This document shows, one piece after another, positions 5,824 through 57,604 of a stretch of 64,000 nucleotides of DNA. Numbering within the stretch: position 1 is the first letter of the stretch; every line of letters starts with the position of its first letter. The notes under the pieces were generated by a model that made no database searches, was not told the origin of the DNA, and saw only the letters and a program-made list of their open reading frames with translations. The DNA comes from Acidobacteriota bacterium (GTDB taxonomy: Bacteria > Acidobacteriota > Blastocatellia > RBC074). A program made the position numbers and the translations under genes. Location: the NCBI GenBank assembly GCA_018268995.1, contig JAFDVL010000102.1:21696-85695 (forward strand). The letters are read 5' to 3'.

Positions 5824-6156
5824 ATGTCTGATTTAGCAGCCAAAACCTGTGTTCCCTGCAAAGGTGGCGTGCCACCTTTGGGCAGCGCTGAAATCGCCAC
5901 GTTGCTTACCCAGCTTAATAATCAATGGGAAGTGATTGCTGAACATCACCTCCGCAAGGAATTCAAGTTACCGGATTTTCGCACTGCGCTCGCATTCACA
6001 AATCAGGTAGGCGAACTGGCAGAAGAACAAGGGCACCATCCAGATATTTATCTGGCCTGGGGCAAAGTCGAGATTACAATTTGGACACATAAAATTGACG
6101 GCCTGAACGAAAGTGATTTCATCCTTGCCGCAAAAATTGATCGCTTGCAAACATAG
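5824..6156 (+). CDS. phhB: Pterin-4a-carbinolamine dehydratase (PCD/DCoH).
   Basis: The 110-aa protein contains ...EEQGHHPDIYLAWGKVEITIWTHKIDGL..., the canonical PCD motif. Confidence 0.85.
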   Translation: MSDLAAKTCVPCKGGVPPLGSAEIATLLTQLNNQWEVIAEHHLRKEFKLPDFRTALAFTNQVGELAEEQGHHPDIYLAWGKVEITIWTHKIDGLNESDFILAAKIDRLQT

Positions 6157-6965: not shown

Positions 6966-6975
6966 AGGAGCATCT

Positions 6976-37714: not shown

Positions 37715-37869
37715 AAACGATCCTTTGCGTATTTTCAGGAAAGTCTGAGAAAGTTCTGATAAAGCGGGGAGAGACTTGCAAGTTCCGGGAACGTCAGATG
37801 CGCATTGCGAATCGTGGCACGTTCCTGAACCTTACAAGTCCTCCCAGTCCGTTCCTAGAGAAAAATTTG

Positions 37870-38931: not shown

Positions 38932-38933
38932 GG

Positions 38934-41900: not shown

Positions 41901-43469
41901 TGCGCCTCCCTGCGGAGTGCCATCAATGATGATCGGATTGGTAATATCCGGGAGCGGCGAGTTCAGTAAAATTGTTTGGGTTCCGCCGCCGATATTGAAG
42001 GTAATGGTATCTGAACCCGCCGTTGCATTCGCTTCCTGGATGGCAGCCCGCAGCGTGCAAATAGGGCCACCAGCGCGCGAACTGTCACAAATACCATCGC
42101 CAGGAATCGCATCAGGCAAATCGCCATTTGAGTTCACACTAAACGTTGCTTCCGGCACGGCATTGATCACCATCGGAGCAGCAGCATTTTTACGCAGCAA
42201 AACCAGCCCATCCAAAGCGCTGGCAGTTGTTCGCAGTGCTAATGCCGCCACCAATTCTCCCTGCCCTTCTAAAGATGCCGAGCTGATGTCTTTGCTGGCA
42301 TTATTCGCGAGGACTCGCAATTGATTCGATTGAAGCGTGACTAAGTCATCCACCTTGCTGCCAGAAATTCGAGCACGCATTAAATGCATTGCGCCACTAT
42401 TTTCCTGCCGGGCGGATCGGGCATTTTCAGTTGGCTTGAGCACCTGCGTTATTTGCCACTGCTCAGCCGCGCGGGAACGAACACTTTGCCTGCTGTTGCC
42501 TGTTACCATCTGACTTACGACTGAAATTGAGCCATCCTGCGCAAGCAATGCGATCTGATTTATGTAGACTTGTGCATCATCAACAAAGTGGCCGATTGCT
42601 AGCGAATCGGCTTTCGCCGAAAGCGCTTTGCGCATGATCGTTGGGGTCTGTCTTCCACCTGCAATGACGACCAGCTCGGTGCCAGCAGCAACAGCGAGAT
42701 CAGAAAAGGCATCGCGGGTTAAGTGGGCGAATGCCAGCGAAGTCGCAGGCTGTGACAGGTTATAGGTTTGAGGCTGTGCTTTCCACGCTCCATCGGCAGC
42801 GCTGAACAACTGAATGAATGCACCATCTGCTGTTTGTTCGGCAACGGCGAAATCTGCCAGTCCATCCACGCGATTGAATTCACCACTCCCCAGCGCCGTG
42901 ATCGCCCCTTTTACCTCCGTCACCACTGGCTCGGCGAAGCCACCTTTGCCATCGCCAGCCAGGAAATATAAGACATTACTATTGCGTGCAGCTGCAATCA
43001 CATCAAAATGGCCATCCGCATCAAAATCGCCTGTTTCAAGAAAATCTGGAATTGAAGGAAGAAGGAGATTACTGCCCGCAGAAGAAAAGATTGCGCTTCT
43101 GGATTCCGTGTCGAAACGGGGATAGAGAGCGTTGGCATTTCCGCGATAGGTGGTGATTATTCCGACGCCACCATTTTCATATCCACCGATCAAATCTGTC
43201 ATCCCATCTTCGTTGAAGTCAGCGGTGGCGAGGGCCAGCGGACGAAGACTGTTTACGTCCTGACCTGCCGACTCCAGCAATTGCGCATTGGACAATCGGA
43301 GTGATTTGCTGCTTGATTGAATTTTGATCGTTTTGGTTTCTGGTCTGGGTAAAACAGTTGTCGCGGGCTTCCTGATGAACGTGGCCAATCCACCAGCGAC
43401 AATCGCAATTGAAGTTAAAGTTAATAGGACTATTTTTGTTGTGAGTTTATGTAACAAACGAACAGACAT
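38934..43469 (-). CDS. Giant (1511 aa) cell-surface protein with FG-GAP/VCBS-like repeats, right-handed parallel β-helix repeats and DUF11 ('conserved repeat domain') units.
   Basis: N-terminal TM anchor. FG-GAP-like DFNEDGMTDLIGG and GDFDADGHFDVIAA. A long Gly/Asn-rich β-helix region (NNIIGGTTAAARNIISGN..., the 'GxxxNxI' periodicity). DUF11-like LTYTITVANNGPNDATGV and VTYTINVTNNGPSTAG. Confidence 0.7.
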   Translation of the reverse strand: MSVRLLHKLTTKIVLLTLTSIAIVAGGLATFIRKPATTVLPRPETKTIKIQSSSKSLRLSNAQLLESAGQDVNSLRPLALATADFNEDGMTDLIGGYENGGVGIITTYRGNANALYPRFDTESRSAIFSSAGSNLLLPSIPDFLETGDFDADGHFDVIAAARNSNVLYFLAGDGKGGFAEPVVTEVKGAITALGSGEFNRVDGLADFAVAEQTADGAFIQLFSAADGAWKAQPQTYNLSQPATSLAFAHLTRDAFSDLAVAAGTELVVIAGGRQTPTIMRKALSAKADSLAIGHFVDDAQVYINQIALLAQDGSISVVSQMVTGNSRQSVRSRAAEQWQITQVLKPTENARSARQENSGAMHLMRARISGSKVDDLVTLQSNQLRVLANNASKDISSASLEGQGELVAALALRTTASALDGLVLLRKNAAAPMVINAVPEATFSVNSNGDLPDAIPGDGICDSSRAGGPICTLRAAIQEANATAGSDTITFNIGGGTQTILLNSPLPDITNPIIIDGTPQGGAPASQSIVINQGANFTGGSYALTLTGNSNTIRGLTISGFTFAGAININLGNSNVIEGNTLVNNGGEGIRIDRSPNNIIGGTTAAARNIISGNSFSGIFLFLETSSGNRILGNYIGTNSAGTSANGNGTGVNLFLAANNVIGSTTAGARNVISGNFGSGISISGSVPTRTEATPEAADGNVIQSNYIGVDAAGTGALGNGNSESFNAAGIQLDGVANTTIGGTAPGAGNIIANNATQGVYLPAPFISSSTVNNSILNNSIYNNGQLGIDLGAAGVTANDTNDTDTGANNLQNYPVLTSALTRTTGTTIVGTLNSAANSTYIVEVFSNASCDTTGNGEGEVFVGRTNVTTNASGVGNISLVVTTPVTAGRVVTATATDSSGNTSEFSACLAVQNAVADLGVTVTAAPNPVFVGNNLTYTITVANNGPNDATGVALTDNVTIPNGQFTVVSVTPLAGSCTGTGPINCNLGTIVPSANATVSVVIAPTIPTTGTPPQSVTATNTASVSSNEQDTITTNNTANANATVNASANLAITQSVAPNPVASGAAVTYTINVTNNGPSTAGFVSAVIRPPVQLLGATCTAPAGWSCGRDGNPFFASTSNLAPGTAVLTITGTLACLAQNTTLTSEATVSSQTFDVSSANNSSTITSTGLAGTAIGTVAYDAGGTALQLGPIVAGSNATPPSGTFTLTNTGCLPMNLTTALFVRVTNAANLSGVDDSRYFSLRLVPASGAEVPLNPTVNPDRTAAQPISINRTLLSGEQLRFRILFNPPLPTFAGTFANRDQGVFATQVLPALFDSQIRFSFITGGVSPGRPEAAGDPGTAAANISARVSPAIQIVPRDGNVIGNPATTPLVEMTTVRDDFRVKVSLYDANKNATKITYQFFDTFRQPASRLIEVDLTSVLNSLSTLLPGQPFTLQQDFSGASGRPDITYVRVAVTDGDATTVTASSSPFIPAFNSATTLFRTEALFSDVIQLAPRKLESKGEASARREN

Positions 43470-44401: not shown

Positions 44402-44496
44402 ATGGTTGACAAGTTCGCAGCTGAATGCGATAAGCTGCGGTGAGGTTAACTCCCAACAAGATAAGCGAGATTTTCCTTCGAAAACAGGAGGCCCCG

Positions 44497-45270
44497 ATGA
44501 CGATGGAAGAAAATTATAGCTTGCAACGACTACTTACCTTGAGAAAGCTGACGCGCGCGATTACAGAACTTTTGCGCGGGCAAATGAAAGAGCATTTGAC
44601 GACAATCGCACCGTTGTTACGTCCTAAAACTGTTCTTGGTGAATATATCAAAAGCAGTACACGCGAAATGACGCCGGGTGCGAATTTAGCTTTTAAAGAC
44701 CTGCAAACTCTATACGAAACCGTCGCAGCCAACAAACCTTTTCTTTTAGCAAAAGAATTAGATTCTTCGCTGGACATCATGAACACCACCATTGAAATCA
44801 CGCCGATGGAATATAGCTATGAAGCGCAGGCCGAAAATCATCGGAAAGTGATTTCAATCACCTCTCCGCTCAAAAACATATTGACCTATTCGGGGTATGG
44901 GCCAACGAAGCTCAAAGAGTTGCTGGCGGATCGGTATCGTCAGCCGGAAAAAGTGCAGGAATACATTGTGCATTATTTAGCCCTGCACGTCACGATTGCG
45001 CGGCAACCGGGACTTTCTCAGATGTTGTCGGCACTGCACTTTCCAATCACCACGATTCGCTTACCCGAATTTGGCGAATTGCCAATTACCTGCATCAACT
45101 CCTCTATCAGTACGATTCGCCCCTCTGATCCGGTCTTAATTGAAAGTACCGAGTTTTCGGGACTGGACGCTTTTGAAGAAGTCGTCAATGTGACAGACAT
45201 CGCGAATTTGCAGGATTCTCTCAAAGAACGATTGCGTGAAATAGCCAAAAACCACGGCGAAAATCTTTGA
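44497..45270 (+). CDS. Hypothetical protein.
   Basis: ATG at 44497 preceded by AGGAGG. I recognise no motifs. Confidence 0.45.
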   Translation: MTMEENYSLQRLLTLRKLTRAITELLRGQMKEHLTTIAPLLRPKTVLGEYIKSSTREMTPGANLAFKDLQTLYETVAANKPFLLAKELDSSLDIMNTTIEITPMEYSYEAQAENHRKVISITSPLKNILTYSGYGPTKLKELLADRYRQPEKVQEYIVHYLALHVTIARQPGLSQMLSALHFPITTIRLPEFGELPITCINSSISTIRPSDPVLIESTEFSGLDAFEEVVNVTDIANLQDSLKERLREIAKNHGENL

Positions 45271-45276
45271 TCGCGG

Positions 45277-45573
45277 TCACCCGATCATCACCGTCATTTC
45301 TCCCATCACGATATTGCCCCCGTGAACGGTTGTATCTCCGATCCGAGCAGCAGGCATAAAGCCAATCATGACCGTCATTGACCCCATCGCGATTACATCC
45401 GGCGGCCCAACACAGGTTGCCATATCGCCAACGCGGGCAGCGGGCATAAAGCCGATCATGACCGTAGGACAACACGGCGGCAAAATTGGGCCTCCGACGT
45501 GTGGCACGGGTGGCGTGCCGGGGGTGACCATGGGGCAAACATGCATATCACCTAATCTGGCTGCTGGTGGCAT
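45277..45573 (-). CDS. PAAR-domain protein (type VI secretion spike tip), minimal form.
   Basis: Three PAAR motifs: MPPAARLGD, GFMPAARVGD, GFMPAARIGD. Conserved Cys/His is present (HVCP, PPCCP). 98 aa with no C-terminal extension. Confidence 0.9.
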   Translation of the reverse strand: MPPAARLGDMHVCPMVTPGTPPVPHVGGPILPPCCPTVMIGFMPAARVGDMATCVGPPDVIAMGSMTVMIGFMPAARIGDTTVHGGNIVMGEMTVMIG

Positions 45574-45584: not shown

Positions 45585-46484
45585 TTACAACTCTCGCATC
45601 GCCTTCGTTACTGCCTGTCGTTGTGAGGCATTCAAAGACACTTTTTTCAAAGCTGTGGTGCCAATCTTTTTCAGCAACCGACGTGCTTCACTTGTCAGCG
45701 GTTGACTATCTGGTGTGGGAACATTCGCATCAACGCGATACCAGTCTTGTGGACGATAATCGAAAAGCGATTCGACTAAATGCGGGCGTAATTGTTTTGG
45801 CAGCGTGGTCGTCAAAATTCGATCCAGGCTCGCCAATAACACAGGATTGCGGCGATGTTGCACGATCGCCTCGTGCATCCAGGCAATCTTTTGCTCCGGC
45901 GCGATGGTGGCATCCACCATCCGTTTTTCTAATAATCCAATTGCCGGAGCCGTGCCATTATCAGCCAAAGCATCAATCACAAACTTGATGTGAACGGAAT
46001 CAGGATCGCTGTGGGTTTCCCAAAATTTCAGCACTTCAGCCGTAGGAGGTCGTACGATTGCCAGAGCCTTGATGAGCATCGTGTCGCAGGCATCACAATT
46101 TATCGGCTTCCCAGACCGCACCAAGGCCGCCAGCGTTTCCCGCATTGGAGCCGAGTCATTGCCGCGTATCGTTTGATACAACTGAGCCAGCCGCAGTTTA
46201 TTGACGGGTTTGCGAATATGATCTTCGCGAGGATCAAGCCGATAGATGGCTTCGATTGACGAGAGAAATTCCAGAAGCTTTTTTTGTTCTTGAGAATTCG
46301 TGCTGGCAGCAAGCTTTTGCATCTCCTGCAAAAGTGAATCTGGATTCTGGGAAGAAGTCGTTGGCGTGACTGTCCCAGCTGCGGCTTTTTCGGCCTCTGA
46401 CGCGACAAGAGTTGATCGTCCTTCGCAGGCGAAAAACAAGAGCATTGAAATTATCGGGCCGGCCCAGATCATTCGGCAGTTCAT
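45585..46484 (-). CDS. Hypothetical secreted protein or lipoprotein, paralog A of the downstream gene.
   Basis: Signal peptide MNCRMIWAGPIISMLLFFAC. It shares blocks with 46501-47292 (HSDPDSVHIKFVIDALADNGTAPAIGLLEKRMVD vs HSTPDSIHLHFTIDALCKNGTDPAIALLERKMID; LRLAQLYQTIRGNDSA vs LRIARIFKVLMMNDSA). Confidence 0.6.
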   Translation of the reverse strand: MNCRMIWAGPIISMLLFFACEGRSTLVASEAEKAAAGTVTPTTSSQNPDSLLQEMQKLAASTNSQEQKKLLEFLSSIEAIYRLDPREDHIRKPVNKLRLAQLYQTIRGNDSAPMRETLAALVRSGKPINCDACDTMLIKALAIVRPPTAEVLKFWETHSDPDSVHIKFVIDALADNGTAPAIGLLEKRMVDATIAPEQKIAWMHEAIVQHRRNPVLLASLDRILTTTLPKQLRPHLVESLFDYRPQDWYRVDANVPTPDSQPLTSEARRLLKKIGTTALKKVSLNASQRQAVTKAMREL

Positions 46485-46500: not shown

Positions 46501-47292
46501 TTACTTAATCAACAAATCCACTTCCGTCAGCGTAATATCAACAGCGACCTTTTCCAGTGGCTTTAATTCCAAATTAGCTTTGGCGTATTCACAAATTGCC
46601 CGCAACTCTTCCAGGGCTTCATTGAAGGCAAGGGCGCGATCCGGTGGAACAGGAACATCGCAGGATTTGTACCATTCTTCCTTGCGATAGGCGCATAAGG
46701 CTTCGACTAATGATCCTTTTAATTCAGGGTCTAAACTGGACTGCAACAGGCGATGACAACCACGCAGCAGTGGGAGATCGTTGCGATGCGACAGGATTGG
46801 GCCGCGCATCCACGCCAGCTTGTAATCCACTTCCTGCTCTGGATCAATCATCTTTCGCTCAAGCAAAGCAATGGCGGGATCAGTGCCGTTTTTGCACAAA
46901 GCGTCAATCGTAAAGTGCAAATGAATCGAATCCGGTGTGCTGTGCGCATCCCAGTATTGAACCGCTACGGACGGAGCGGGCCGAACCGCAGCCAGTGCTT
47001 TGACCAGCAGTTCTTCGCGTGCATCTGAGTCCTTAAATGTGGGCACCTGCGTTAAGGCCACCAGGGTTTGATGGGCTGCCGCAGAATCATTCATCATCAA
47101 GACCTTAAAGATGCGGGCGATGCGCAGTCTTTTGGGAGAGAGAGCAATGTAATCTTCACGCGAATCTATCCGGCTTAAGTAATCCGCAGAACTCAAGGCC
47201 GACAACAGCATAGACTGTTCATTTGGAGTCTTACCGTTGGCCCAGCCGACGGCTTGCCTGACTAATTCCTGCGGAGTTGGTTCATTGGCCAT
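46501..47292 (-). CDS. Hypothetical cytoplasmic protein, paralog B of 45585-46484.
   Basis: No signal peptide (MANEPTPQELVRQAVGW...). It shows paralogy as described for 45585-46484. Confidence 0.6.
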   Translation of the reverse strand: MANEPTPQELVRQAVGWANGKTPNEQSMLLSALSSADYLSRIDSREDYIALSPKRLRIARIFKVLMMNDSAAAHQTLVALTQVPTFKDSDAREELLVKALAAVRPAPSVAVQYWDAHSTPDSIHLHFTIDALCKNGTDPAIALLERKMIDPEQEVDYKLAWMRGPILSHRNDLPLLRGCHRLLQSSLDPELKGSLVEALCAYRKEEWYKSCDVPVPPDRALAFNEALEELRAICEYAKANLELKPLEKVAVDITLTEVDLLIK

Positions 47293-47312: not shown

Positions 47313-49154
47313 CTATGCTTTATCCTTCAAGCCGGGATGTTTGCGCACCGTGATCGTTTGAATCAAGTCAGCATCCAAGCCGCGCCGGACGTCATACCCC
47401 ATCACATTTTCGCGCCACGGATGACCACGCTTTTTCCCTTTGTCATCCACACTGTTGACGTCATCGTCCGAGAGCTTGAATCCGGTCGCAACGTTATTTT
47501 CCCCACCGCTGCCACGATGAAATAATCCCAGAATGTGGCCTATTTCGTGCGCCATATTTTGCCCCGAATCATGTTCCGGTGCTCCGACCGTCCAATCGGA
47601 AGGATAGATCACCCCAAAGAGCCGTTTCTTCAGGTCATCCGAAGAGAAACTCGCTTGCACTTTTTTGCGCGCCTTGACATAAGCCGCATCCGAAGAATTT
47701 GAGCGGTTCTGATGCGAAAAGGATTTCATCTTCACTTTCTTTGCTGCGGCATCCGGTAGGACGCCACTAGGTAAAACCAATGACGTGCTGGGAAAACCAT
47801 CTAATTCTTCCGTCTTCCCTGAGACGCTTTGCAAGTCGGTCGCAGCGGCATTGGTTCCGGTGGTGGAACGGACAAAGGCAACATTGAGAACACTGGGGTT
47901 GAAATTCAAGCGCGTCGCAATCGGGGAGACATTATTATTCACGTTCACCGTCCAGTTATCTTTTTCCGCTGTCACCGTGAAGATTCCTTTATTTGCCGAA
48001 GCTACAGCATTATCCCAAGTCGTAGCATCAGGATCAGGAACAAATTCAATGCCGCATTGCCACCAGATAATCTGAGCAACCTGCATAAAATGAAGGACAT
48101 CGCTTGGCGACACCGTCGGGCTACGTTCTGGATGATTTGTCTTGTCTACGCCATTGATAATGTTGATGCGATAACGAATTTCTTTGATAACGCCGACCCA
48201 AGCGCGATACGTTGCCAGCAATGGGCCTTTTTCACCATCCCAACGTGCTTCAATCACCGCCATTTTATCGGTCGGAGCAGATGTGCCTCGCACCTTTACC
48301 CAAATGCCCTGATTGGAACCGACGAATTCAATCGGGCCTTCTTTGATGTGCCAGGTCACTTTGCTGACCTCTAAATCCCCCGGCCAAACCCAAGTGATTG
48401 CAATCTTCGCCGCTTTGGTTTCCAAATCAGGATCGCTTTTTTTCAAAACTGGAATCAGAGAAGGATTCACCAAGATATTCCAAGCCATATCAGGGGTCAG
48501 CGTGATGGCTTTGGCAAATTCAGTTTCCTTGCCGGGTTCCAATTCGGCTTTCAACGCTTCGATGGCGGCAGGACGGGGCGGCAATTTGCTCGGAGAAATG
48601 GGGACGGGAACAACGGGACAGACTTCAATTCTTGGCTCAACCGCTTTGCCTGAAATTGTTGTGAATGTGCTGCTGCCATTATTCTGCCGACTGACCAGGA
48701 TACCCTTGGTTTTGTCTGGCGTGGTGGTCGCTTTGACTTCCAACTGCTTGACGGTCACGTAGGCTTGAAAATACTGATGATCAGGAAAAAACAGCCAGCC
48801 TTTGATAACTGAGGAGGAAATCGGGAAGTCTGTGTATTCGTTGGTGAAGGGATATTTCAGCGTTAGTTTTGCTTCGCCCAAATCGTCATCGCTGAAGACA
48901 TCCACATCAATTCCCTTGATGGAAATTTCGATCTTGTCACCAGGCTTCTTATTTGTCAGATCAAGTTCGACTGACCATTTATCTTCCGGCAACTTGATCG
49001 TGTCTTTATCGCGCACCTCAAATTCATGATTGGGATCACCAACTGTTTTCCCGTCCACCTTGGCGGTTAATTTCCATTCTCCAGCACCAATGATGTCGCC
49101 GCTTTCATTCGCGTAGACTTTATTGAATGTTACTTTGATCTTCGTTACTGGCAT
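47313..49154 (-). CDS. Metzincin-type zinc metalloprotease domain protein; candidate T6SS cargo effector.
   Basis: 613 aa with no signal peptide. Near the C-terminus are the extended zinc motif HEIGHILGLFH (HExxHxxGxxH) and a Met-turn-like NVMGY about 40 aa later. The N-terminal 450 aa is β-rich and of unknown fold. Confidence 0.65.
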   Translation of the reverse strand: MPVTKIKVTFNKVYANESGDIIGAGEWKLTAKVDGKTVGDPNHEFEVRDKDTIKLPEDKWSVELDLTNKKPGDKIEISIKGIDVDVFSDDDLGEAKLTLKYPFTNEYTDFPISSSVIKGWLFFPDHQYFQAYVTVKQLEVKATTTPDKTKGILVSRQNNGSSTFTTISGKAVEPRIEVCPVVPVPISPSKLPPRPAAIEALKAELEPGKETEFAKAITLTPDMAWNILVNPSLIPVLKKSDPDLETKAAKIAITWVWPGDLEVSKVTWHIKEGPIEFVGSNQGIWVKVRGTSAPTDKMAVIEARWDGEKGPLLATYRAWVGVIKEIRYRINIINGVDKTNHPERSPTVSPSDVLHFMQVAQIIWWQCGIEFVPDPDATTWDNAVASANKGIFTVTAEKDNWTVNVNNNVSPIATRLNFNPSVLNVAFVRSTTGTNAAATDLQSVSGKTEELDGFPSTSLVLPSGVLPDAAAKKVKMKSFSHQNRSNSSDAAYVKARKKVQASFSSDDLKKRLFGVIYPSDWTVGAPEHDSGQNMAHEIGHILGLFHRGSGGENNVATGFKLSDDDVNSVDDKGKKRGHPWRENVMGYDVRRGLDADLIQTITVRKHPGLKDKA

Positions 49155-49187: not shown

Positions 49188-49925
49188 TTAGCTGCCGTGC
49201 AATTGTTTCAACTTATCCTTCGTGGCGGCATCAATCTTTCCGGTGACATCTAATTCATTGTTCTGCTGGAACATTCGCAAGGCCGAAGCTAAGTCATCGG
49301 TTAGCTCATCGCCTGTTGAAGCGCAAGGAAAGCCCAAATTGGATAAGCGCATTCGCACCCCGGAAATTTCAGAGATGGGGTCCATGCCACCCAGATTCAA
49401 AGGTAATACACGCTCTTCCGGCGTCCCTGGGCGAATAACCAACCGACCTTCGCGTGCATTTGGCGGCAGTTCAACCTCAATCTGCCCCTCGCCATCTGTT
49501 GAGCCCTCTTTCACCACTTTGCCGTCTATTTCCAGACGAAAGGGAGCATTCTTGACAGGTTCATCTTGAATTGGTTCCGGGTTGTAATCCGGGTCTTCGA
49601 CGTGAGAACCATCGTCTGCACCCGTAGCATTTTCTTCCGCTGGTTTATCCTCTGCTTTGGGCGGTTCCATCACTTTGAGTTTGAGCTTGGCTGGAACGCC
49701 TTTGATCTTGAATTTATGCTTTTGATCAGTCGCACAAGATTCTTCTTTCAGTTCCTTGTCGGGGATGAACAGGACATCGCCTTCTTTGAGAATATTAGGA
49801 TCAGTGCGTTTCTGTTTCAGCTCTGCATTTTTAGGATGATTCCAGAGCGTTTCCCAGAAGAAGCCGCGATCAAAAGCGATGCTGCTGACGCAATCTCCGG
49901 GTTGGATAACATACTCTTCAGGCAT
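49188..49925 (-). CDS. LysM domain + peptidoglycan-binding (PG_binding_1-like) domain protein.
   Basis: The N-terminus YVIQPGDCVSSIAFDRGFFWETLWNHPKN...LKEGDVLFIP is LysM. The C-terminus GVRMRLSNLGFPCASTGDELTDDLASALRMFQQNNELDVTGKIDAATKDKL is PG-binding-like. It starts 22 nt after the vgrG stop. Confidence 0.65.
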   Translation of the reverse strand: MPEEYVIQPGDCVSSIAFDRGFFWETLWNHPKNAELKQKRTDPNILKEGDVLFIPDKELKEESCATDQKHKFKIKGVPAKLKLKVMEPPKAEDKPAEENATGADDGSHVEDPDYNPEPIQDEPVKNAPFRLEIDGKVVKEGSTDGEGQIEVELPPNAREGRLVIRPGTPEERVLPLNLGGMDPISEISGVRMRLSNLGFPCASTGDELTDDLASALRMFQQNNELDVTGKIDAATKDKLKQLHGS

Positions 49926-49947: not shown

Positions 49948-52278
49948 TCAGGCTTTTGTCCAGGCTTCTTTATCCAAATCGGGGAAGGTCACTTTGCAAC
50001 TGCCCGGATCAATACCGGCAACAAGAGCATAGCCTTTTTCATCCAGTGTGCCTTCCGCCAGAGTTTGTCCATCGGGCAACGTGACACGGTAGCGCAGCCC
50101 CGGAACAGGCTTGCCATCTTCATTCACGACCTCAATTTCGATCTTGGATTTCTTTTCTTTGTTCTCTTCAGAGTTGGGATTATGCGAGGGCGCATTCGCC
50201 GCAGCTTGTTCTGATGCGGATTTGGCCTGCCATTGCTGTTTGTACGTTGGCGCTTTGTCGCCCGGATCAGCATTGTCGGCAATGTCAGCTTCAGCAGGTG
50301 CGGTGGGCGAAACCAACATTCCAGCCATTCCGGGCAAAGCAGCACCACCACTGTTGATCATCACCATCGTGCCTTGAATAAAGACGCCTGCCGGAAGCAA
50401 GGTAATAAAATTGCCGCCGCATTTCAGCGTCAGGCCGCTGCTGGATTCGATGACAACCTGCATCCCCTTAACGTAGATGTTGCCAGTCGTGGATTCAGTG
50501 TGATTGCCAGAAATTTCCTCTGTCACATTGCCTTTGACGGCGACAGATTGCGCCCCAGTGATTTCAATAGCCTCTTTGCCTTTAATTTTCAAGTGATGAT
50601 CACGGCCAATTTCTTCGACTTGATCTCGTTTGATAACGATTTGCTGATCACGTTCGATCAGCTCTTTTTGGTCGCGCTTGACGATTAAATGGGTGTCGCG
50701 GCCAATCCATTCGCGGCGATCATTTTTGACGCGCAAGTCCATGTCCTTCTCGGCATGCATGAACAATTGCTCATCGCCTTTTTTATCTTCCATCCGAATT
50801 TCGTTGAAGCCGCCACCGCCCTTGGAAGAATAGGTTTTGACGGTACTCTTGGTCATTTCATCGGGCAGTTTGTAAGGCGGCATGGAATCCGCGTTATAAA
50901 CGCGTCCCACGATAATCGGACGATCTGGATCACCTTCCAGAAAATCTACGATGACTTCCTGCCCGATGCGTGGCAGCGAGATTTGCCCCCATCCTTTTCC
51001 GGCCCACGTCGTAGACACGCGAATCCAGCAGGAACTCATGGCATCGTATTTCCCTTCCCGATCCCAATGGAATTGCACTTTCACGCGTCCGTACTTGTCA
51101 GTGTAAATTTCTTCGCCCGGCGGGCCGACAACGATGGCTGTCTGCGAACCAGCGACGACGGGAACCGGGGTAATGCGCGGTGAGCGAAATGGCGTCGGGT
51201 GCTGGATACATTGAAACGAATTGTAATAACTCAGCGTTGTCTCCCCCGCATCCGAGCTGCGCCAGCTTTCGCCTAGATCGGCGGAATGTTGGATTGAGGT
51301 CAAAACATACGCCTTGTTAAAGTCGCGACGATAGTGATCGCGAAGGTCAAATCTGTAGCCCGTGACTAAACCTCGACAGGTGCTTGCGCCGTTCACGACA
51401 ACTTGTGGCAAATCTTCTTCCTGAATACGAATGCCAACCAGACGCTCGCCTTCATCTTTGGTCTTGTATTCACCGGGATAATCGTAAATTTCCAATTTAC
51501 TCTCGCCCTTACCGGACAGATTTGATGTCAGATCAAGGCCAGGGTTTTCAAAATTGAAATCGCGGACTGTGTATTGACCGGGCCGAACCTCACGGCTCAT
51601 GGTGAAATCTGTGATGACATCTTCGTCGCGTTCCTGCCCGATGACCGTTTTGTAACTGACCATATCCTGCAACGGGCAAGGTTTGAATTCATTGGCGTTG
51701 TTGGCAAGGATGAGGGTGTGTTTTTCTTTTTCGTGCTCGAAGAAGTAAAAGATGCCTTCTTCTTCCATCAGGCGCGAGACAAAGTTGAAATCCGTTTCGC
51801 GGTACTGCACGCAGTATTCGCGTTTGGCGAAGTTGCCTTGCAGCTTGTTTTTGAAATCGGCAAATCCGTTGTCCTTGAAAATCTTCTCGAGAATTTCAGG
51901 CACGGTCATTTCCTGAAAAATACGGCAATCACTGGTTCGCGTCAGCATCCAGAACCAGGGCACCAGCGAGGCAGAATAATGCGTGAAAACAGTTGGCTTG
52001 TCGCCTTCTTCCAGCGTGGAAGAGCCGCCCTGCGAAAAGGAACTGATCAAACCATTGATGAATCGTTCAGAGCCGTCTGGCAAGACAATCGCGATGGTGG
52101 CGCGCTTGCCAACAATGTCTTCAAATTTGATGCTGCGATTTTCCGACATCAGCCGCAGACTGAAATGGAAGAGTCGCGAAATTCCTTCCTGCCCATCGAA
52201 TCCCTGCAACAACAATTCGTCCTCGCCCAGCGGCGTGTAAATGCGAATGATGCGATTTTCCTGTTTATATTCTGGCAA
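49948..52278 (-). CDS. vgrG: Type VI secretion system spike protein VgrG.
   Basis: The N-terminus ENRIIRIYTPLGEDELLLQGFDGQEGISRLFHFSLRLMS is the canonical VgrG/gp27 start. Length is 776 aa. The start is TTG at 52278 with an AGGAGG RBS. A C-terminal extension of about 70 aa follows a Lys/Glu-rich linker. Confidence 0.9.
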   Translation of the reverse strand: MPEYKQENRIIRIYTPLGEDELLLQGFDGQEGISRLFHFSLRLMSENRSIKFEDIVGKRATIAIVLPDGSERFINGLISSFSQGGSSTLEEGDKPTVFTHYSASLVPWFWMLTRTSDCRIFQEMTVPEILEKIFKDNGFADFKNKLQGNFAKREYCVQYRETDFNFVSRLMEEEGIFYFFEHEKEKHTLILANNANEFKPCPLQDMVSYKTVIGQERDEDVITDFTMSREVRPGQYTVRDFNFENPGLDLTSNLSGKGESKLEIYDYPGEYKTKDEGERLVGIRIQEEDLPQVVVNGASTCRGLVTGYRFDLRDHYRRDFNKAYVLTSIQHSADLGESWRSSDAGETTLSYYNSFQCIQHPTPFRSPRITPVPVVAGSQTAIVVGPPGEEIYTDKYGRVKVQFHWDREGKYDAMSSCWIRVSTTWAGKGWGQISLPRIGQEVIVDFLEGDPDRPIIVGRVYNADSMPPYKLPDEMTKSTVKTYSSKGGGGFNEIRMEDKKGDEQLFMHAEKDMDLRVKNDRREWIGRDTHLIVKRDQKELIERDQQIVIKRDQVEEIGRDHHLKIKGKEAIEITGAQSVAVKGNVTEEISGNHTESTTGNIYVKGMQVVIESSSGLTLKCGGNFITLLPAGVFIQGTMVMINSGGAALPGMAGMLVSPTAPAEADIADNADPGDKAPTYKQQWQAKSASEQAAANAPSHNPNSEENKEKKSKIEIEVVNEDGKPVPGLRYRVTLPDGQTLAEGTLDEKGYALVAGIDPGSCKVTFPDLDKEAWTKA

Positions 52279-52288: not shown

Positions 52289-53416
52289 CTAATTCGTCAA
52301 TTCAAAATGATGCAGATCCACGTTGGCTGAATAAAACGTCGCGCCCCAACGAAACTTGTGTTTGTGTAATTGTTCCAGCAAACTCCACTCCAGCGTAAAG
52401 AAACCCTGTTTCCAGGCAATTAGCTTTGGAGCCTTTGCCAGCAAGACTTCAAGGGGTTCCGACCGCTTCGGGATAGGCTTTCCAGCGGCTTTCAATTTCT
52501 CATCTTCCTTCTGACGCTCATCCTGGATTCGTTTCAACTCGGATGCGACCTTTTTGACAAACTCATCGTTCACGTCTTTGACATCTTTCCACATCGCCTG
52601 TGGACTGGTGTTCCATCGCGTCAGACTCAAATCAACTTTCGCCTTCCCGGTAAACTCAATCAGAAAATCCCACTCCGCCTTCGATAGAATTGGATTGCTC
52701 AGAGATTCAATGTCAATCGCATTGCCGATGGCATGTTCGCTGATTGTGCCCAGACGATAGCGATAACCGCTGTCCTTCATTGGACGTGGATTGAATCCGC
52801 CTGTTTTGAACGGCTTGTCATACGCAACACGAACTTTGGCAAGTGCCGCTTTGAGTTCTGCTGAATTTCCACGCAGGATCAGCTCTGACACATCGTTGAC
52901 GCCTTTTTTTTGATAGGCCTTTCGCACCCAGCGGTAGAAAACTTTTTGCGCCTCCGGGTTCTCTCCCATCTCAATCAATTTGCGAAGGCCTTTTGTGGAT
53001 TCCAATTCCGTATCCGACTCGTAGGAGTAATCTTCATACTCAGCGGCGGAGCCAAAATACTCGTTCCGATAGGCAATATAATCATCCACATTCTTGAGGT
53101 TGATTTTCCCCTTCAGCAACTTGAATTCTGATTCCTCTGCTGCCCGAACCAGCGCTTTCCGCATTGCGCGAAAGATAATCATTTGCAATGGATCATCCGC
53201 AGTGAACTCAGGGCAGGGCAAGGTTTCCCAACTCAACCGAAGGCGATGGTGCGGATCGGCCAAATCTTTCATGCCCACCGAACCTGGCGTATCACCAAGC
53301 AAAAGGCGTGGCGCATCGGGATTGCCAAAATCGTTGTGGCCAAGTGGTCCCGGCGTAAGGGGCGAAAGCTTGAATGGGTCGCGGCCACAGGAAATGATGT
53401 TGCGTGAGTTCCCCAT
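52289..53416 (-). CDS. Peptidase M15 (VanY/L,D- or D,D-peptidase) domain protein; candidate peptidoglycan-targeting T6SS effector.
   Basis: M15 zinc motifs are ISEHAIGNAIDIE (SxHxxGxAxD) and the C-terminal KFRWGATFYSANVDLHHFE (WGG...D.xHFE). There is no signal peptide. The N-terminal extension of about 200 aa is unknown. Confidence 0.65.
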   Translation of the reverse strand: MGNSRNIISCGRDPFKLSPLTPGPLGHNDFGNPDAPRLLLGDTPGSVGMKDLADPHHRLRLSWETLPCPEFTADDPLQMIIFRAMRKALVRAAEESEFKLLKGKINLKNVDDYIAYRNEYFGSAAEYEDYSYESDTELESTKGLRKLIEMGENPEAQKVFYRWVRKAYQKKGVNDVSELILRGNSAELKAALAKVRVAYDKPFKTGGFNPRPMKDSGYRYRLGTISEHAIGNAIDIESLSNPILSKAEWDFLIEFTGKAKVDLSLTRWNTSPQAMWKDVKDVNDEFVKKVASELKRIQDERQKEDEKLKAAGKPIPKRSEPLEVLLAKAPKLIAWKQGFFTLEWSLLEQLHKHKFRWGATFYSANVDLHHFELTN

Positions 53417-53995
53417 CTATGCGCCCTCCTGCTTAGATGGAAACTGTTGATGATGCAAAAACACCCGCAAATCTGAAGCGGAGAAAAATACTAATCGCAC
53501 TTCTTTAATCTGATCATCGCTGGCCAAAAACGAGGCGATAGCTTTCGATGAAACAGCGGCAGCCTCTTCGCGGGGATAGCCGTAAACACCTGTCGAAATC
53601 GCAGGAAAAGCGATGGATTCCAAGCTATTCTCTGCCGCTAATTTCAGCGAGTTGTGATAGCAGGCAGCCAGATAAGCTGCATCCTGTTCACCGTGTCTGC
53701 CTTTGATCGGGCCAACGGTGTGAATGACAAACCGTGCAGGCAAATTTCCAGCAGTTGTCAGTACGGCATCTCCGGTCGGAAGCCCATCTGGGAAGCGTGT
53801 CTGGCGGATTTCCTGACACGCTTCCAGAATGGATGGCCCACCGTTTCTGTGAATTGCACCGTCCACCCCACCACCACCCATCAATGTCCAATTCGCAGCA
53901 TTCACGACAGCATCAACGGCTTGTGCCGTGATGTCGCCTTGCAATGCAATGACGCGACCGGAGAGAAATGAATGGGTTGTTTGTGGCGATTGCAT
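53417..53995 (-). CDS. Macro-domain protein (ADP-ribose binding / O-acetyl-ADP-ribose deacetylase-like, YmdB type).
   Basis: GDITAQAVDAVVNAANWTLMGGGGVDGAIHRNGG ... FPAISTGVYGYP are the classic macro-domain motifs. The stop is directly adjacent to the ATG of the M15 gene (TAGATG). Confidence 0.85.
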   Translation of the reverse strand: MQSPQTTHSFLSGRVIALQGDITAQAVDAVVNAANWTLMGGGGVDGAIHRNGGPSILEACQEIRQTRFPDGLPTGDAVLTTAGNLPARFVIHTVGPIKGRHGEQDAAYLAACYHNSLKLAAENSLESIAFPAISTGVYGYPREEAAAVSSKAIASFLASDDQIKEVRLVFFSASDLRVFLHHQQFPSKQEGA

Positions 53996-54027: not shown

Positions 54028-56685
54028 TTACGAGATGTCGTATTTGAAGTGTTCGTCTTCCGTGAGACTAACGTAAACCTTCGAGACGGCTTCTCCCGTT
54101 GCCATACGCGTCAGGAACTCACCGCTCATTTCAGGCAGTAATGTTCCATTGAGCACGTTGTGAACGTTGCGCGCGCCGCTGTCCACATCGGTACACCGTT
54201 TCGCGACGGCTTCCACCACGGCATCGTCGTAGGAGAAGTCTGCGCCGTGATTTTCTTCGATTCGCTTCGCAATCTTGGAGAGCTGCAACTTGATAATGAG
54301 CCGCAAAATTTCATCCGAGATTGGATAGTACGGCGCGATGGTCATACGTCCGAGTAACGCAGGCTTGAACGCCTTCACTAACTCAGGCCGTAAGGCTTCG
54401 ATCAACCCCTCAGGCTCAGGCTTTGTATCCGGGTCGGCGCACAGCTTCATGATCGTGTCCGTCCCAACGTTCGAGGTCAGCAGAATAATCGTATTTTTAA
54501 AATCAATCTCACGTCCTTCGCCATCTTCCAGCACGCCCTTGTCAAAGACCTGATAGAAAAGCTCCATCACGTCTGGATGAGCTTTTTCAACTTCATCCAG
54601 CAGGACGACCGAGTATGGTTTGCGGCGGACAGCTTCCGTCAAGACACCGCCTTCGCCGTACCCGACATAGCCTGGAGGTGAGCCTTTGAGACTGGAAACA
54701 GTGTGCGCTTCCTGATACTCGCTCATGTTGATCGAGATCAAATTGCGTTCACCGCCGTAGAGTGAATCGGCCAATGCCAGGCCCGTTTCGGTCTTGCCAA
54801 CACCGCTGGTTCCGACCAATAAAAATACACCGATGGGGCGTTTGGGATCAGTCAAACCAGCACGCGAGGTCTTGATGCGTTCGGAAATTGCGTTCAGGGC
54901 ATGATCCTGACCGATAACGCGTTTCTTCAGGGTATCGGAAAGATGTAAGATCGCCTGAATTTCATCCGCTACCATTTTACCAACCGGAATGCCTGTCCAG
55001 CCTGAAATCACTTCGGCAATGGTCTGTGACGTCACAACCGGCTGCATCAATGGCGTCTCGCCCTGAACCGTTTTCAGTTCCGCATTCAGGTTGGCGAGGT
55101 CAGTACGCAAGGCTTGCGCCCCTTCTGTCGAATGCTCGGCAGCCATTGCTTCCAGCTTTTCACGAATTTCGCGAATCTTACCAATCAGGTTTCGTTCCTG
55201 TTCCCATTGTGCATTCAGTTTTGCCAATGACTCTTCAGTGGTGGTGCGTTCTGCATTGAGTTCGGCAATGCGCTCTTCGTGTGCAGCACCAGTGATGGCT
55301 TCACGTTCGAGGACATTGATTTCAGTCGTCAGATTTGCAATGCGACGATTGGAATCTTCAATCGCAGGCGGCGTTGCTCCCTGGCCGATGGCAACTTTGG
55401 CGCAAGCGGTGTCAAGCACACTGACGGATTTATCAGGTAATTGCCGCCCTGTGATGTAACGACTGGATAAGCGCACGGAATCTTCAACTGCCTCATCCAA
55501 AATGCGAACGTGGTGATGGTTTTCCAGCGCGCTGACAATACCACGCATCATCACAATGCCTTTGGCTTCGTCCGGCTCTTCGACTTTGACGACCTGAAAG
55601 CGGCGAGCAAGCGCGGCGTCCTTCTCAAAGTATTTTTTGTACTCGGCCCAGGTGGTCGCCGCAATGGTTCTGAGTTCGCCGCGTGCCAGTGCAGGCTTCA
55701 GCAAATTCGCCGCATCGTTCTGTCCGGCCTGTCCGCCCGCGCCGATCATCGTATGTGCTTCGTCAATAAAAATAATGATCGGAGTGGGCGAGGATTTGAC
55801 TTCGTCAATCACTGACTTCAAGCGATTTTCAAATTCCCCCTTGATTCCGGCACCCGCTTGAAGCAGGCCTAAATCAAGAGTTCGCACAATGACATTCTTC
55901 AGCGGGTCAGGCACATCGCCTTGGGCAATACGAAGGGCGAAGCCTTCAACAACTGCGGTCTTACCAACCCCCGCTTCACCCGTCAGAATTGGGTTGTTCT
56001 GGCGGCGACGCGTCAGAATGTCAACGACCTGACGGACTTCAAATTCACGGCCCAACACCGGATCAATTTTGCCGGAACGAGCCTTAGCAGTCAGGTCAAT
56101 CGTGAATTGATCCAACGCCTTTGTTTTGCCCGGTGCACCAATTGCTCCGCCTTCAGTTGCCTCACCGCCCCCCTCCATCGGTTGCGAGGTGAAGCCTTCT
56201 GCGGCACGAGCTTCGGCTGAACCTGTGGTCAAGGCAGCAAAGTTTTCGCGCAGTTCGTCCACTTTGATTTTTGTGAAGTCTTTGGAAATCTCACGCGCAA
56301 GACGAATCAATTGCTCATTCGTCAATAAAGCCAACAGCAAATGGCCAGATCGAACTTTCGCCTCACCGTATTCCACCGACGCCAATAACCACGCGTCCTG
56401 AAACAAGGTTGGAATGTATGGGGAAATCGAAGGTGTGCGCGCATTCCCAGTCTTCAAGCGATCCATTGCTACTGTGATGTCCTTGCCCAACCGTGACGCA
56501 TTTAGCTCATAGTGACGAAGGATTTTATTCAGATCGGTATCAGTGGATTCGAGCAATTTGACAAAGAGATGCTCAATTTCGACATCGTAATTGGTACGAG
56601 ACAAGCAAAGTCCGGCAGCACCTTCAAGCGCGCTTCGTGTCGTATCATTTAATCGGGCTACAAGTGATTTTAAACTTACATTCAT
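54028..56685 (-). CDS. clpV: Type VI secretion AAA+ ATPase ClpV (TssH).
   Basis: ClpB-like protein of 885 aa. The N-domain is LKSLVARLNDTTRSALEGAAGLC. There are two AAA modules (GEAGVGKTAVVEG; GTSGVGKTETGLALA). It lies within the T6SS operon. ATG at 56685. Confidence 0.9.
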   Translation of the reverse strand: MNVSLKSLVARLNDTTRSALEGAAGLCLSRTNYDVEIEHLFVKLLESTDTDLNKILRHYELNASRLGKDITVAMDRLKTGNARTPSISPYIPTLFQDAWLLASVEYGEAKVRSGHLLLALLTNEQLIRLAREISKDFTKIKVDELRENFAALTTGSAEARAAEGFTSQPMEGGGEATEGGAIGAPGKTKALDQFTIDLTAKARSGKIDPVLGREFEVRQVVDILTRRRQNNPILTGEAGVGKTAVVEGFALRIAQGDVPDPLKNVIVRTLDLGLLQAGAGIKGEFENRLKSVIDEVKSSPTPIIIFIDEAHTMIGAGGQAGQNDAANLLKPALARGELRTIAATTWAEYKKYFEKDAALARRFQVVKVEEPDEAKGIVMMRGIVSALENHHHVRILDEAVEDSVRLSSRYITGRQLPDKSVSVLDTACAKVAIGQGATPPAIEDSNRRIANLTTEINVLEREAITGAAHEERIAELNAERTTTEESLAKLNAQWEQERNLIGKIREIREKLEAMAAEHSTEGAQALRTDLANLNAELKTVQGETPLMQPVVTSQTIAEVISGWTGIPVGKMVADEIQAILHLSDTLKKRVIGQDHALNAISERIKTSRAGLTDPKRPIGVFLLVGTSGVGKTETGLALADSLYGGERNLISINMSEYQEAHTVSSLKGSPPGYVGYGEGGVLTEAVRRKPYSVVLLDEVEKAHPDVMELFYQVFDKGVLEDGEGREIDFKNTIILLTSNVGTDTIMKLCADPDTKPEPEGLIEALRPELVKAFKPALLGRMTIAPYYPISDEILRLIIKLQLSKIAKRIEENHGADFSYDDAVVEAVAKRCTDVDSGARNVHNVLNGTLLPEMSGEFLTRMATGEAVSKVYVSLTEDEHFKYDIS

Positions 56686-56730
56686 GATCAACCTCGATTC
56701 CAGGGGCCTCTTTAGTAATTTAGTGGATCG

Positions 56731-57591
56731 TTATTTTTTCGGCGGCGCATACGTCGAAAGTGGGTACGCCTTCAGCCCAAAGGTTTCCGGGCTTTCTGCC
56801 AAGATGGCAGCGGCAAAGAACCTGGGCAGATAATGAACCCCTTCGTCTAAAAAAGCCTTGTCGAATTTCTTGGCGTCTGGCTTCGCTAAGATCGCCCAGA
56901 GTTCACCGCCTGAGTCGTGCTCTTTAATCAATTCAGCAAAATCGCGTTTTACATTTGCAGTGCCACGGTTGTACGCAAGCATGGCCAGCGCGGCGGAGAT
57001 GCCATCCTTCCCAAATTCCGCCATTCGCGCTTTGATAAATCGAGCCGCCGCGTTTGCCCCTTTCTCGACATCGCAAAGGGCATCCGCTTTTACGCCTAAA
57101 CTTGTGGCAGATGCTGGCAGGATGGCAAACATCCCTTTCCCTTTGCCCTTCGCAGGGCAGGGTTGGAATTCGGATTCCAACAACGCAACCGCATTCCCTA
57201 ACGTTTCCAGGACTTTCTCTTTTTCAAACTCACCATTGATAATAGGAGCATATTGCACCGCACGCTCAAAGACTTTGTTCAGGTCTTCACCGCCCGACTT
57301 GGGATCAGCAGCGCCAACGCGTACGGCATAGACATCAACCCATTTTTTGATCAACTGGACGCCTTCTGCTGAAACCACCAAAGGCTTTTCAGGGGATAAC
57401 ATCCAACCAAGATTTCCCGCGTAATTTGAGATAAAACTGGCCCGTGCCTGGTCATTCATTTTCAAATACTGTGATGCGCCACTTGTTGCAGCCTCTGAGG
57501 CTTTGGGCGCTGAGGTATTGCTTTGGGCGAGGATCGGCATGGCTAAAAACAGCAGTGAGGTTAGCATGACCGATGGGATTAACTTCTTCAT
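56731..57591 (-). CDS. Secreted lytic transglycosylase (SLT-domain) protein.
   Basis: Signal peptide MKKLIPSVMLTSLLFLAMPILAQS. SLT-like motifs are LLESEFQPCPAKGKGKGMFAI (ES-x-F...G-LMQ variant) and LAMLAYNRGTANV (AYNAG-like). Confidence 0.55.
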   Translation of the reverse strand: MKKLIPSVMLTSLLFLAMPILAQSNTSAPKASEAATSGASQYLKMNDQARASFISNYAGNLGWMLSPEKPLVVSAEGVQLIKKWVDVYAVRVGAADPKSGGEDLNKVFERAVQYAPIINGEFEKEKVLETLGNAVALLESEFQPCPAKGKGKGMFAILPASATSLGVKADALCDVEKGANAAARFIKARMAEFGKDGISAALAMLAYNRGTANVKRDFAELIKEHDSGGELWAILAKPDAKKFDKAFLDEGVHYLPRFFAAAILAESPETFGLKAYPLSTYAPPKK

Positions 57592-57604
57592 TTTTCCTGA
57601 CTCC

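Follow-up and report, generated by a model that had tools for sequence, protein, structure and literature searches.

To our knowledge, few peptidase effectors of type VI secretion systems (T6SS) are known (VgrG2b/Tpe1, the M91 Rhs domain, and T6EC12), and none of them has a firmly established physiological substrate. In this study, a metalloprotease gene was analyzed in a 64,000-nucleotide stretch of DNA, herein referred to as the window, from an Acidobacteriota bacterium (contig JAFDVL010000102.1). The encoded protein, herein called the protease, belongs to the metzincin clan by its motif and fold class. With an estimated probability of about 0.75, it is a T6SS cargo effector, i.e., a toxin, and a zinc endopeptidase of a new metzincin family.

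The Tpe/Tpi pairs, namely the C-terminal domain of VgrG2b with PA0261 in Pseudomonas aeruginosa and Tpe1-Tpi1 in Acinetobacter baylyi, combine an HExxH zinc peptidase and T6SS delivery with a transthyretin (TTR)-like module of VgrG and a periplasm-exposed immunity protein, often a lipoprotein (PMC6899460). The protease locus shares these features, with delivery and immunity being predicted. The C-terminal metallopeptidase of VgrG2b was described as M35-like (PMC10673891). In contrast to the Tpe proteins, the protease is a separate cargo not fused to VgrG, contains C2-like and Ig-like domains, and is accompanied by an additional, cytoplasmic paralog of the putative immunity protein. Membership in the VgrG2b type was considered and rejected: the structure 6H56 is absent from the best 60 sequence-profile matches and from the best 50 Foldseek matches, and it was touched only by the profile of the VgrG TTR module (E 0.44). 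The protease would work like the Tpe/Tpi pairs and is, judged by sequence, not a member of them, as the catalytic domains have no detectable relationship.

The recently reported T6EC12 of Methylocaldum szegediense is, like the protease, a T6SS cargo (a predicted one in the case of the protease) built around an HExxH center in a novel scaffold; toxicity was found in several compartments, and only mutants speak for a protease activity (bioRxiv 10.64898/2026.09.28.754971). However, T6EC12 has HELSH together with D312 and E341, lacks the third His of HExxHxxGxxH, has no described Met-turn, and is not a metzincin. It also differs from the protease in size and domain make-up. T6SS cargo protease toxins as such are already known; new here are the catalytic family, the C2-like domain, and the duplication of putative immunity across two compartments.

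Metzincin Domain, Family Conservation, and Domain Architecture

The open reading frame (ORF) of the protease starts with ATG and is preceded by GGAGAGG located 10 nt upstream of the start (Table 1). Protein positions are given herein in true numbering including Met1; the homolog alignments and the full-length model lack Met1, and their numbers are one lower. The initial annotation of this DNA had described a 613-aa ORF without signal peptide, and both points were confirmed. The N-terminus contains no hydrophobic segment (Kyte-Doolittle 12-mer maximum of 0.28 in the first 45 aa), transmembrane-like stretches are absent throughout the protein (19-mer maximum of 0.98), and the first β-strand of the model begins at residue 3, in agreement with the absence of a Sec/Tat signal peptide. 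The two motifs taken in that annotation as fitting a metzincin, HEIGHILGLFH and the Met-turn-like VMGY, were both located, and both are near-invariant in relatives. In the six-frame translation of the window, HExxHxxGxxH was found once, compared with ~0.006 occurrences expected by chance.

Table 1. Positions of the protease gene, its domains and motifs, and the neighboring genes in the window.
Feature	Position (nt)	Strand	Description and evidence
Protease (putative effector) gene	47313..49154	(-)	613 aa; C2-like, conserved Cys segment, Ig-like, and metzincin domains; no signal peptide
C2-like β-sandwich, residues 1-141	48732..49154	(-)	Foldseek against PDB and sequence profile
Conserved segment P174-R-I-E177-V-C179-P-V-V-P-V-P185	48600..48635	(-)	Candidate metal-ligand or switch segment
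Ig-like β-sandwich, residues ~231-336	48147..48464	(-)	AlphaFold2 secondary structure: all-β, pLDDT 91-97
Metzincin catalytic domain, residues ~337-613	47316..48146	(-)	Separate AlphaFold2 model and Foldseek
Zinc-binding motif HEIGHILGLFH (H536-E-I-G-H540-I-L-G543-L-F-H546, then R547)	47517..47549	(-)	Residues 536-546
Met-turn VMGY (V584-M585-G-Y587)	47394..47405	(-)	Inside the conserved H-P-W-x-E-N-V-M-x-Y motif
PAAR spike-tip protein	45277-45573	(-)	98 aa; last gene of the operon; Pfam PAAR_motif, E 1.2e-21
Paralog B	45585-46484	(-)	299 aa; N-terminal signal peptide, lipobox-like FFAC
Paralog A	46501-47292	(-)	263 aa; no Pfam match; no signal peptide
LysM-like/PG_binding_1 protein	49188-49925	(-)	245 aa; Pfam PG_binding_1, E 3.3e-7; no signal peptide
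VgrG	49948-52278	(-)	776 aa; TIGR03361, E 1.8e-198; Phage_GPD, Gp5_trimer_C
M15_4-like protein	52289-53416	(-)	375 aa; short Peptidase_M15_4 (VanY-like) match; no signal peptide
Macro-domain protein	53417-53995	(-)	192 aa; E 2e-43
ClpV	54028-56691	(-)	Pfam AAA_2/ClpB_D2-small
SLT lytic transglycosylase	56731-57690	(-)	
Caspase-like Peptidase_C14 protein	57605-58924	(-)	E 3e-42
CsgG-like lipoprotein	58954-59946	(-)	E 8e-38
TssG	60028-61077	(-)	Pfam T6SS_TssG, 1.9e-111
TssF	61109-62965	(-)	Pfam T6SS_TssF, 5.8e-231

Residue conservation was counted on the hmmalign alignment of 239 collected family members, with the members covering a position as the denominator. The HExxHxxGxxH motif, whose retention in homologs had been proposed as a check, is kept: the zinc ligands H536, H540, and H546 were found in 201/202, 199/201, and 201/202 members, respectively, and the catalytic E537 in 199/202. 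Position 543 is Gly in the majority of members (145 of ~200) and otherwise N (31), C (11), or S. In the Met-turn region, M585, located 39 residues after H546, is conserved in 191/196 members, N583 in 195/195, P579 in 189/189, and Y587 in 130/196. Additionally, D596 and Q599 are invariant among the aligned members. The residue after the third His is Arg (R547) in all 202 members covering it. In classical metzincin families, this residue is Asp, Pro, Ser, or Glu.

In total, 62 full-length homologs (~610 aa) of the protease were found among 5.8 billion proteins, none of them with a Pfam domain. All but one of these homologs come from metagenomes or metagenome-assembled genomes (MAGs), the exception being that of Methylomonas sp. 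AM2-LC (74% identity). A profile search among 1.84 billion cluster representatives yielded 352 representatives at E ≤ 1e-3, including 120 at E ≤ 1e-30. All current annotations of family members are "hypothetical" or "peptidoglycan-binding protein." A further homolog search with a 147-sequence profile revealed no additional named organisms and no Ketobacter protein, and no match to the protease was found by tblastn in 72,556 plasmids.

The protease reaches no threshold of the metzincin families in Pfam and NCBIfam, with 16.3 bits for Peptidase_M10 (cut-off 24), 13.8 for Reprolysin_4 (cut-off 22), and 15.2 for TIGR03952 (cut-off 208); all of its Pfam matches to M10, M12B, M7, and M43 are sub-threshold. 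The comparison of 57 members with Pfam also gave sub-threshold matches only (M10 in 14 members, Reprolysin_4 in 7, and M43 in 5). All PDB sequence matches of the family profile are metzincins, beginning with the serralysin-type PrtC (E 7e-5) and leucurolysin (6e-4) and followed by ADAMs and matrix metalloproteinases (MMPs). Because the thresholds are not reached and an invariant Arg follows the third His, the protease is assigned to the metzincin clan and to none of its described families. On these sequence criteria it is a new metzincin family, outside all named families of the clan, and zinc-dependent endopeptidase activity is predicted for it. It also contains large family-specific insertions, such as that with the conserved PSxSWxxPSGVxPD motif.

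The HExxHxxGxxH motif, the Met-turn, and the overall fold class are common to the protease and to adamalysins/ADAMs (M12B), serralysins (M10B), and matrixins (M10A), and the M-x-Y arrangement is similar to that of astacins and serralysins. In contrast to the classical metzincins, the protease is a cytoplasmic product that lacks both a signal peptide and the known kinds of removable N-terminal pro-domain.

The full-length AlphaFold2 model, built with a 57-sequence alignment, has a predicted local distance difference test (pLDDT) value of 90.5 and a predicted template modeling score (pTM) of 0.83; for the catalytic domain modeled alone, these values are 89.8 and 0.89. In the Foldseek comparison of the catalytic domain with PDB, 25 of the best 26 matches are metzincins, with ADAM17/TACE, ADAM33, ADAM8, snake-venom metalloproteinases, myroilysin, and PAPP-A as the top neighbors. 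The matches are weak. The structure prediction proposed in the initial annotation was thereby run; the fold class is supported by the model, with no close relative among the solved structures.

The same annotation had assigned about 450 aa to an N-terminal region without recognizable family. The model instead limits the non-catalytic part to ~336 aa, with the catalytic domain starting near residue 337, and reveals C2-like and Ig-like domains in it. According to the model, residues 1-141 adopt a C2-type fold. Their Foldseek neighbors in PDB are the C2 domains of E-Syt2, CAR4, cPLA2, dysferlin, Munc13, and perforin (E 2e-5 to 1e-4, probability 1.00, target-normalized TM 0.5-0.6). For the sequence profile of these residues, the best PDB match is the C2 protein 4rj9 (E 0.037), the alignment spanning W...D-x-D-x-x-x-D-D-x-G, which is the C2 calcium-loop motif; Pfam C2 was not detected in the protease at E ≤ 0.1. 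An acidic loop cluster of this domain (D20, E26, D83, D85, and D89-91) is kept in the majority of relatives and lost in several subfamilies (L020-L022, L027, and L028). Judged from the model, the C2-like domain may bind Ca2+ or lipids. Of the two roles suggested earlier for the N-terminal region, targeting is therefore plausible for the C2-like domain, whereas loading onto VgrG is more likely provided by the separate LysM-like/PG_binding_1 protein.

Other relatives vary in architecture. Members of a large subfamily of ~690 aa have an added C-terminal PG_binding_1 domain. In relatives of 1,176-1,448 aa (P0170 and P0175; positions 5441-9787 of locus L037), OmpA-family and PG_binding_1 domains are fused to the Ig-like and metzincin core. 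On the 10-kb contig of L037, a LysM-containing 479-aa protein and a DUF8367 protein are encoded upstream of the fusion, and no vgrG was found. Two other proteins of ~1,150 aa (P0169 and P0182) show seven tandem matches to the C2-like N-terminal domain and have no Pfam domain and no protease part.

T6SS Context, Recurrence of the Cassette, and Predicted Loading

The genes for VgrG, the LysM-like/PG_binding_1 protein, the protease, the two paralogs, and PAAR are all located on the minus strand with gaps of 11-33 nt and, because of this arrangement, form one operon. The vgrG gene is located two genes upstream of the protease gene, and the genes for ClpV, TssG, and TssF adjoin the operon. The initial annotation had placed the gene in a VgrG/PAAR cargo region, and both of these genes indeed flank it. 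Its gene list, correct for the paralogs and PAAR, had overlooked the 245-aa LysM-like/PG_binding_1 gene between vgrG and the protease gene.

For comparison, 31 loci from species-representative genomes and the loci fetched via exact proteins were analyzed by tblastn with the proteins of the window. The order adaptor-protease-paralog, herein referred to as the cassette, is kept in every locus with enough flanking DNA. The carriers belong to Blastocatellia, other Acidobacteriota, Verrucomicrobiota, Phycisphaerales, other Planctomycetota, Polyangiaceae (Myxococcota), Methylomirabilota, Pseudomonadales, and Methylomonas (Gammaproteobacteria). With 85% identity, the window itself probably comes from a Blastocatellia genome. 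Linkage to vgrG was evaluated in the 24 informative loci, each with at least ~4 kb of upstream sequence. In 12 of these, vgrG is located upstream within 10 kb with the cassette directly behind it (L002, L005, L006, L008, L010-L013, L015, L016, L019, and L035). This order spans Blastocatellia, other Acidobacteriota, Verrucomicrobiota, Phycisphaerales, and an unclassified MAG. Genes for ClpV, TssF, and TssG are also present in five of the vgrG-linked loci (L005, L006, L008, L015, and L035). Locus L035 mirrors the window, with the order TssF-TssG-ClpV-VgrG-VgrG-adaptor-protease-two paralogs-...-PAAR. PAAR follows the paralogs in L005, L006, and L008, and also in L035, behind an intervening methyltransferase gene. 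The occurrence of orthologs in genomes lacking T6SS had been named as a second ground for rejection; on this point, the link between the protease and T6SS is strong.

In Methylomonas sp. AM2-LC (L001; CP157005.1, ~998-1020 kb), the cassette is located beside IS21/rve transposase genes, a RhuM gene, and a TacA/acetyltransferase toxin-antitoxin pair, and a 288-aa protein with a TTR-like C-terminal module is encoded directly upstream of it. This context suggests a mobile orphan cassette.

The VgrG of the window ends with a TTR/prealbumin-like module (residues ~705-776, nt 49951-50166), in which a sub-threshold CarboxypepD_reg match (0.0038) covers residues 713-765. The profile of this module weakly matches the TTR domain of VgrG1 from enteroaggregative Escherichia coli in PDB (6sjl, E 0.17). 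Elsewhere, the TTR-like module is a free protein of 122-128 aa before each cassette. The gene for the 245-aa protein is found directly upstream of the protease gene in every locus having upstream sequence. Its PG_binding_1 domain is C-terminal, and the family profile matches the PG-binding domain of CtpB in PDB (1e-4).

Stand-alone LysM and PG_binding_1 proteins of vgrG loci were described as a class bridging VgrG and effector; by co-immunoprecipitation, a stand-alone LysM protein was required for binding of the downstream toxin to VgrG, and deletion of a fused LysM domain abolished binding (PMC10673891). In Ketobacter alkanivorans, the genes for VgrG (Kalk_10465), LysM protein (10460), toxin (10455), and immunity protein (10450) follow the same order as in the protease operon, and the toxin is neutralized by the downstream gene (PMC10673891). 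The family of Kalk_10455 is unstated in the text and supplements of that paper, and the likeness of this locus to the protease locus is one of gene order. By analogy, the 245-aa protein is a putative VgrG-effector loading adaptor or co-effector. Because of the LysM precedent, which serves here as an analogy, and the pattern of TTR modules, it is inferred to dock the protease onto the TTR-like module of VgrG.

Several cassettes in a row were found in L002 (3684-9249 and 18646-19556), L012, L013, and L015. Each of them consists of a free TTR-like protein (90-128 aa), a LysM-like/PG_binding_1 protein or LysM-like N-terminal fusion, a putative effector of another kind, and putative immunity genes. 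In L002, one such effector is 602 aa long and has HEIGH at its end; a 308-aa gene comes after it, and on the opposite strand an OmpA-like 560-aa gene and a 759-aa gene are located behind the same two modules. Such a cassette pattern was described in a 2023 survey of vgrG loci (PMC10673891).

Other genes of the window were noted as well. The CsgG-like, caspase-like, and SLT genes are inserted between tssG and clpV, which is unusual in a T6SS core cluster; the SLT and caspase-like ORFs have 86 nt in common, and the start of one of them may therefore be misassigned. The M15-like gene is found at the same place in L008 (80% identity) and could encode a second effector or an accessory enzyme of wall remodeling. 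A 276-aa ORF (44440-45270, plus strand) that starts with GTG and matches nothing in Pfam converges on the PAAR gene, with stop codons 6 nt apart, and is possibly no real gene. Downstream of the T6SS island, a region on the minus strand (35303-43469) encodes a caspase/CHAT-like TPR protein (803 aa), a 353-aa Big_1-like protein, and a 1,511-aa repeat-rich adhesin-like protein.

Paralogs, Proposed Mechanism, and Site of Action

The two genes following the protease gene had been recognized previously as paralogous, and their products indeed share 37% identity (E 6e-54); the difference between them, i.e., a signal peptide with the lipobox-like sequence in the second product and none in the first, had been overlooked. 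Both are α-helical, and searches in Pfam, NCBIfam, and PDB gave nothing beyond a weak alphaRep/HEAT-like match (E 0.12). In each of the 28 loci with a first paralog, this protein lacks a signal peptide, whereas the second paralog begins with a hydrophobic stretch in ~20 loci, in most cases together with a lipobox. Two Polyangiaceae loci have the lipoprotein-type paralog only. Both paralog types still follow in the distant relatives L031-L034, which have different N-termini and only the catalytic domain in common with the protease. This speaks for paralogs that inhibit by binding the catalytic domain and against loading chaperones of the N-terminus. The effector-immunity-PAAR arrangement read from the window earlier is supported by this synteny. 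Based on the sequence features, paralog A is a putative cytoplasmic inhibitor, immunity protein, or chaperone, and paralog B is a putative periplasmic lipoprotein immunity protein.

Immunity split over two compartments, as proposed here for the paralogs, was described for Tle-Tli of Enterobacter cloacae, where periplasmic Tli provides immunity and cytosolic Tli activates Tle before export (bioRxiv 10.1101/2023.03.28.534661). In that system, a single gene supplies both pools by use of alternative start codons, and a phospholipase acts as the effector, whereas the protease locus has two diverged paralogous genes and a protease as the effector.

According to the proposed mechanism, the protease would be made in the cytoplasm without a signal peptide and kept harmless or folded there by the 263-aa paralog. 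The LysM-like/PG_binding_1 protein would attach it to the TTR-like C-terminus of VgrG, and the VgrG-PAAR spike would carry it into neighboring bacteria. In the target, it would cleave one or more proteins at the cell envelope, and sister cells would be protected in the periplasm by the exported 299-aa lipoprotein paralog.

The envelope is proposed as the site of action because a C2-like (lipid-binding) domain and peptidoglycan-binding modules travel with the catalytic domain. The evidence on this point pulls both ways: the exported paralog, the C2-like fold, the ~690-aa PG_binding_1 subfamily, and the OmpA and PG_binding_1 fusions point to the envelope, and the near-universal cytoplasmic paralog points to the cytoplasm. 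Toxicity in both compartments, as for the unrelated T6EC12, would explain both sets of evidence. VgrG2b may release lipoproteins from membranes (PMC6899460). By this analogy, membrane-proximal envelope proteins are reasonable, if speculative, candidates for substrates.

Several observations weigh against the proposed cargo-toxin role or its details. In the other 12 of the 24 informative loci, the cassette is an orphan: its neighbors are unrelated genes, and vgrG is absent within 10 kb. Matches between the catalytic domain and solved metzincins are weak (E 3.7e-3 to 1, TM 0.3-0.5), as are the PDB matches of the LysM-like N-terminus of the adaptor (YVIQPGDCVSSIA...GDVLFIP), namely MltD (0.036) and phage gp61 LysM (0.16). 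Single-paralog loci mostly keep the cytoplasmic type (L003, L021, L024, L027, L028, and L030), and for this reason a purely periplasmic toxin fits poorly. By analogy with other T6SS loci, PG_binding_1 and LysM domains may serve loading and not peptidoglycan binding, which weakens the argument for the envelope. Finally, Methylomonas sp. AM2-LC is the sole cultured organism in which the family was found, and the literature search revealed no described T6SS metzincin and no experimentally characterized member of the family.

Alternative Explanations, Possible Latency, and Significance

Peptidoglycan-binding modules always travel with the protease, and T6SS clusters, including that of the window, carry genes for wall remodeling, here the SLT and M15_4-like genes. 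Accordingly, the protease could be a T6SS accessory enzyme rather than a toxin, e.g., a wall-remodeling or maturation peptidase for assembly or cargo processing, with the paralogs as its regulators. This is very improbable given the cargo position between vgrG and PAAR, the existence of orphan cassettes remote from T6SS genes, and the pairing of cytoplasmic and periplasmic putative inhibitors, which resembles immunity. Moreover, the side-by-side cassettes with the same TTR and LysM adaptors and other effectors (L002, L012, L013, and L015) are typical of interchangeable toxins. We know of no peptidoglycan hydrolase with a metzincin fold, which also counts against such an enzyme. A peptidoglycan-hydrolase function of the protease was itself rated unlikely, in view of the metzincin fold and of the possible loading role of the peptidoglycan-binding modules.

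An effector directed mainly against eukaryotes, or acting across kingdoms, is improbable as well, if less so than an accessory enzyme. The protease would then be an ADAM-like sheddase reaching protist or fungal membranes via its C2 domain, and the paralogs would protect the producer only. C2 domains are mostly eukaryotic membrane-targeting modules, ADAM17 and other ADAMs are the closest structures to the catalytic domain, conservation is higher for the cytoplasmic than for the exported paralog, and T6EC12, another T6SS effector with HExxH, harms yeast as well as E. coli (bioRxiv 10.64898/2026.09.28.754971). However, the ADAM resemblance is weak and at the fold level only, PG_binding_1 and OmpA domains are repeatedly fused to the catalytic core, and the exported lipoprotein paralog of ~20 loci is what a defense against toxin arriving in the bacterial periplasm looks like.

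The segment around C179, located between the C2-like and Ig-like domains, is among the best-conserved stretches of the family, with the consensus R-x-E-x-[C/H/D]-P-V. Among the 239 relatives, position 179 is C in 116, H in 48, D in 4, N in 4, and S in 2, and position 177 is E in 131 and H in 35. Because Cys, His, and Asp alternate at position 179, it resembles a metal ligand. Metzincins are usually kept latent by a cysteine or aspartate switch, with examples in the pro-enzymes of MMPs, ADAMs, and astacins. Hypothetically, the segment could therefore be a zinc switch keeping the enzyme latent, or else a structural metal site. In the former case, which would refine the cargo-toxin explanation rather than replace it, the protease would be a latent zymogen, its catalytic zinc capped by the C179 segment and freed only in the target, e.g., upon binding of Ca2+ or membrane by the C2-like domain. 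We consider such a zymogen unlikely, though less so than an effector against eukaryotes. In its favor, the residues at position 179 are mostly those typical of metal ligands, position 177 is E or H, the motif survives just upstream of the core in fusion proteins without the C2 domain (VEIDPV, VEIHPV, or VEMNSV), and the segment is extended, Pro-rich, and confidently modeled (pLDDT 87-90). However, N, S, or A occupies position 179 in some members, and a structural metal site tying the N-terminal module to the catalytic domain is an equally good reading. Covariation analysis by mutual information with average product correction (effective number of sequences ~136) gave no clear partner for position 179; the top z values are ~3, for D489, W319, and G586, and the subfamily signal dominates. 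A dedicated cytoplasmic inhibitor would also be less needed with a latent enzyme.

A still more doubtful extension would combine a compartment-gated zymogen, the C179 cap being released by Ca2+ or membrane binding of the C2-like domain in the target envelope, with a duplicated inhibitor split into a cytoplasmic chaperone or safety paralog and a lipoprotein immunity paralog. If true, this combination would represent a novel principle by which a promiscuous protease passes safely through T6SS, and the candidate occurs in phyla with almost unexplored T6SS biology: Acidobacteriota, Verrucomicrobiota, Planctomycetota, and Myxococcota.

The family of the cargo-toxin candidate described here is widespread, its 352 cluster representatives belonging to at least six phyla and being nearly all uncultured, and it fills an annotation gap. 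It offers a confident model, a clear catalytic signature, an identifiable candidate for the loading adaptor, and a conserved pair of putative inhibitor paralogs in two compartments. Thus, it makes tractable the questions of how a producer keeps a potentially promiscuous protease harmless, how LysM/PG_binding_1 adaptors and TTR modules match cargo to VgrG, and what a metzincin cuts in the bacterial envelope.

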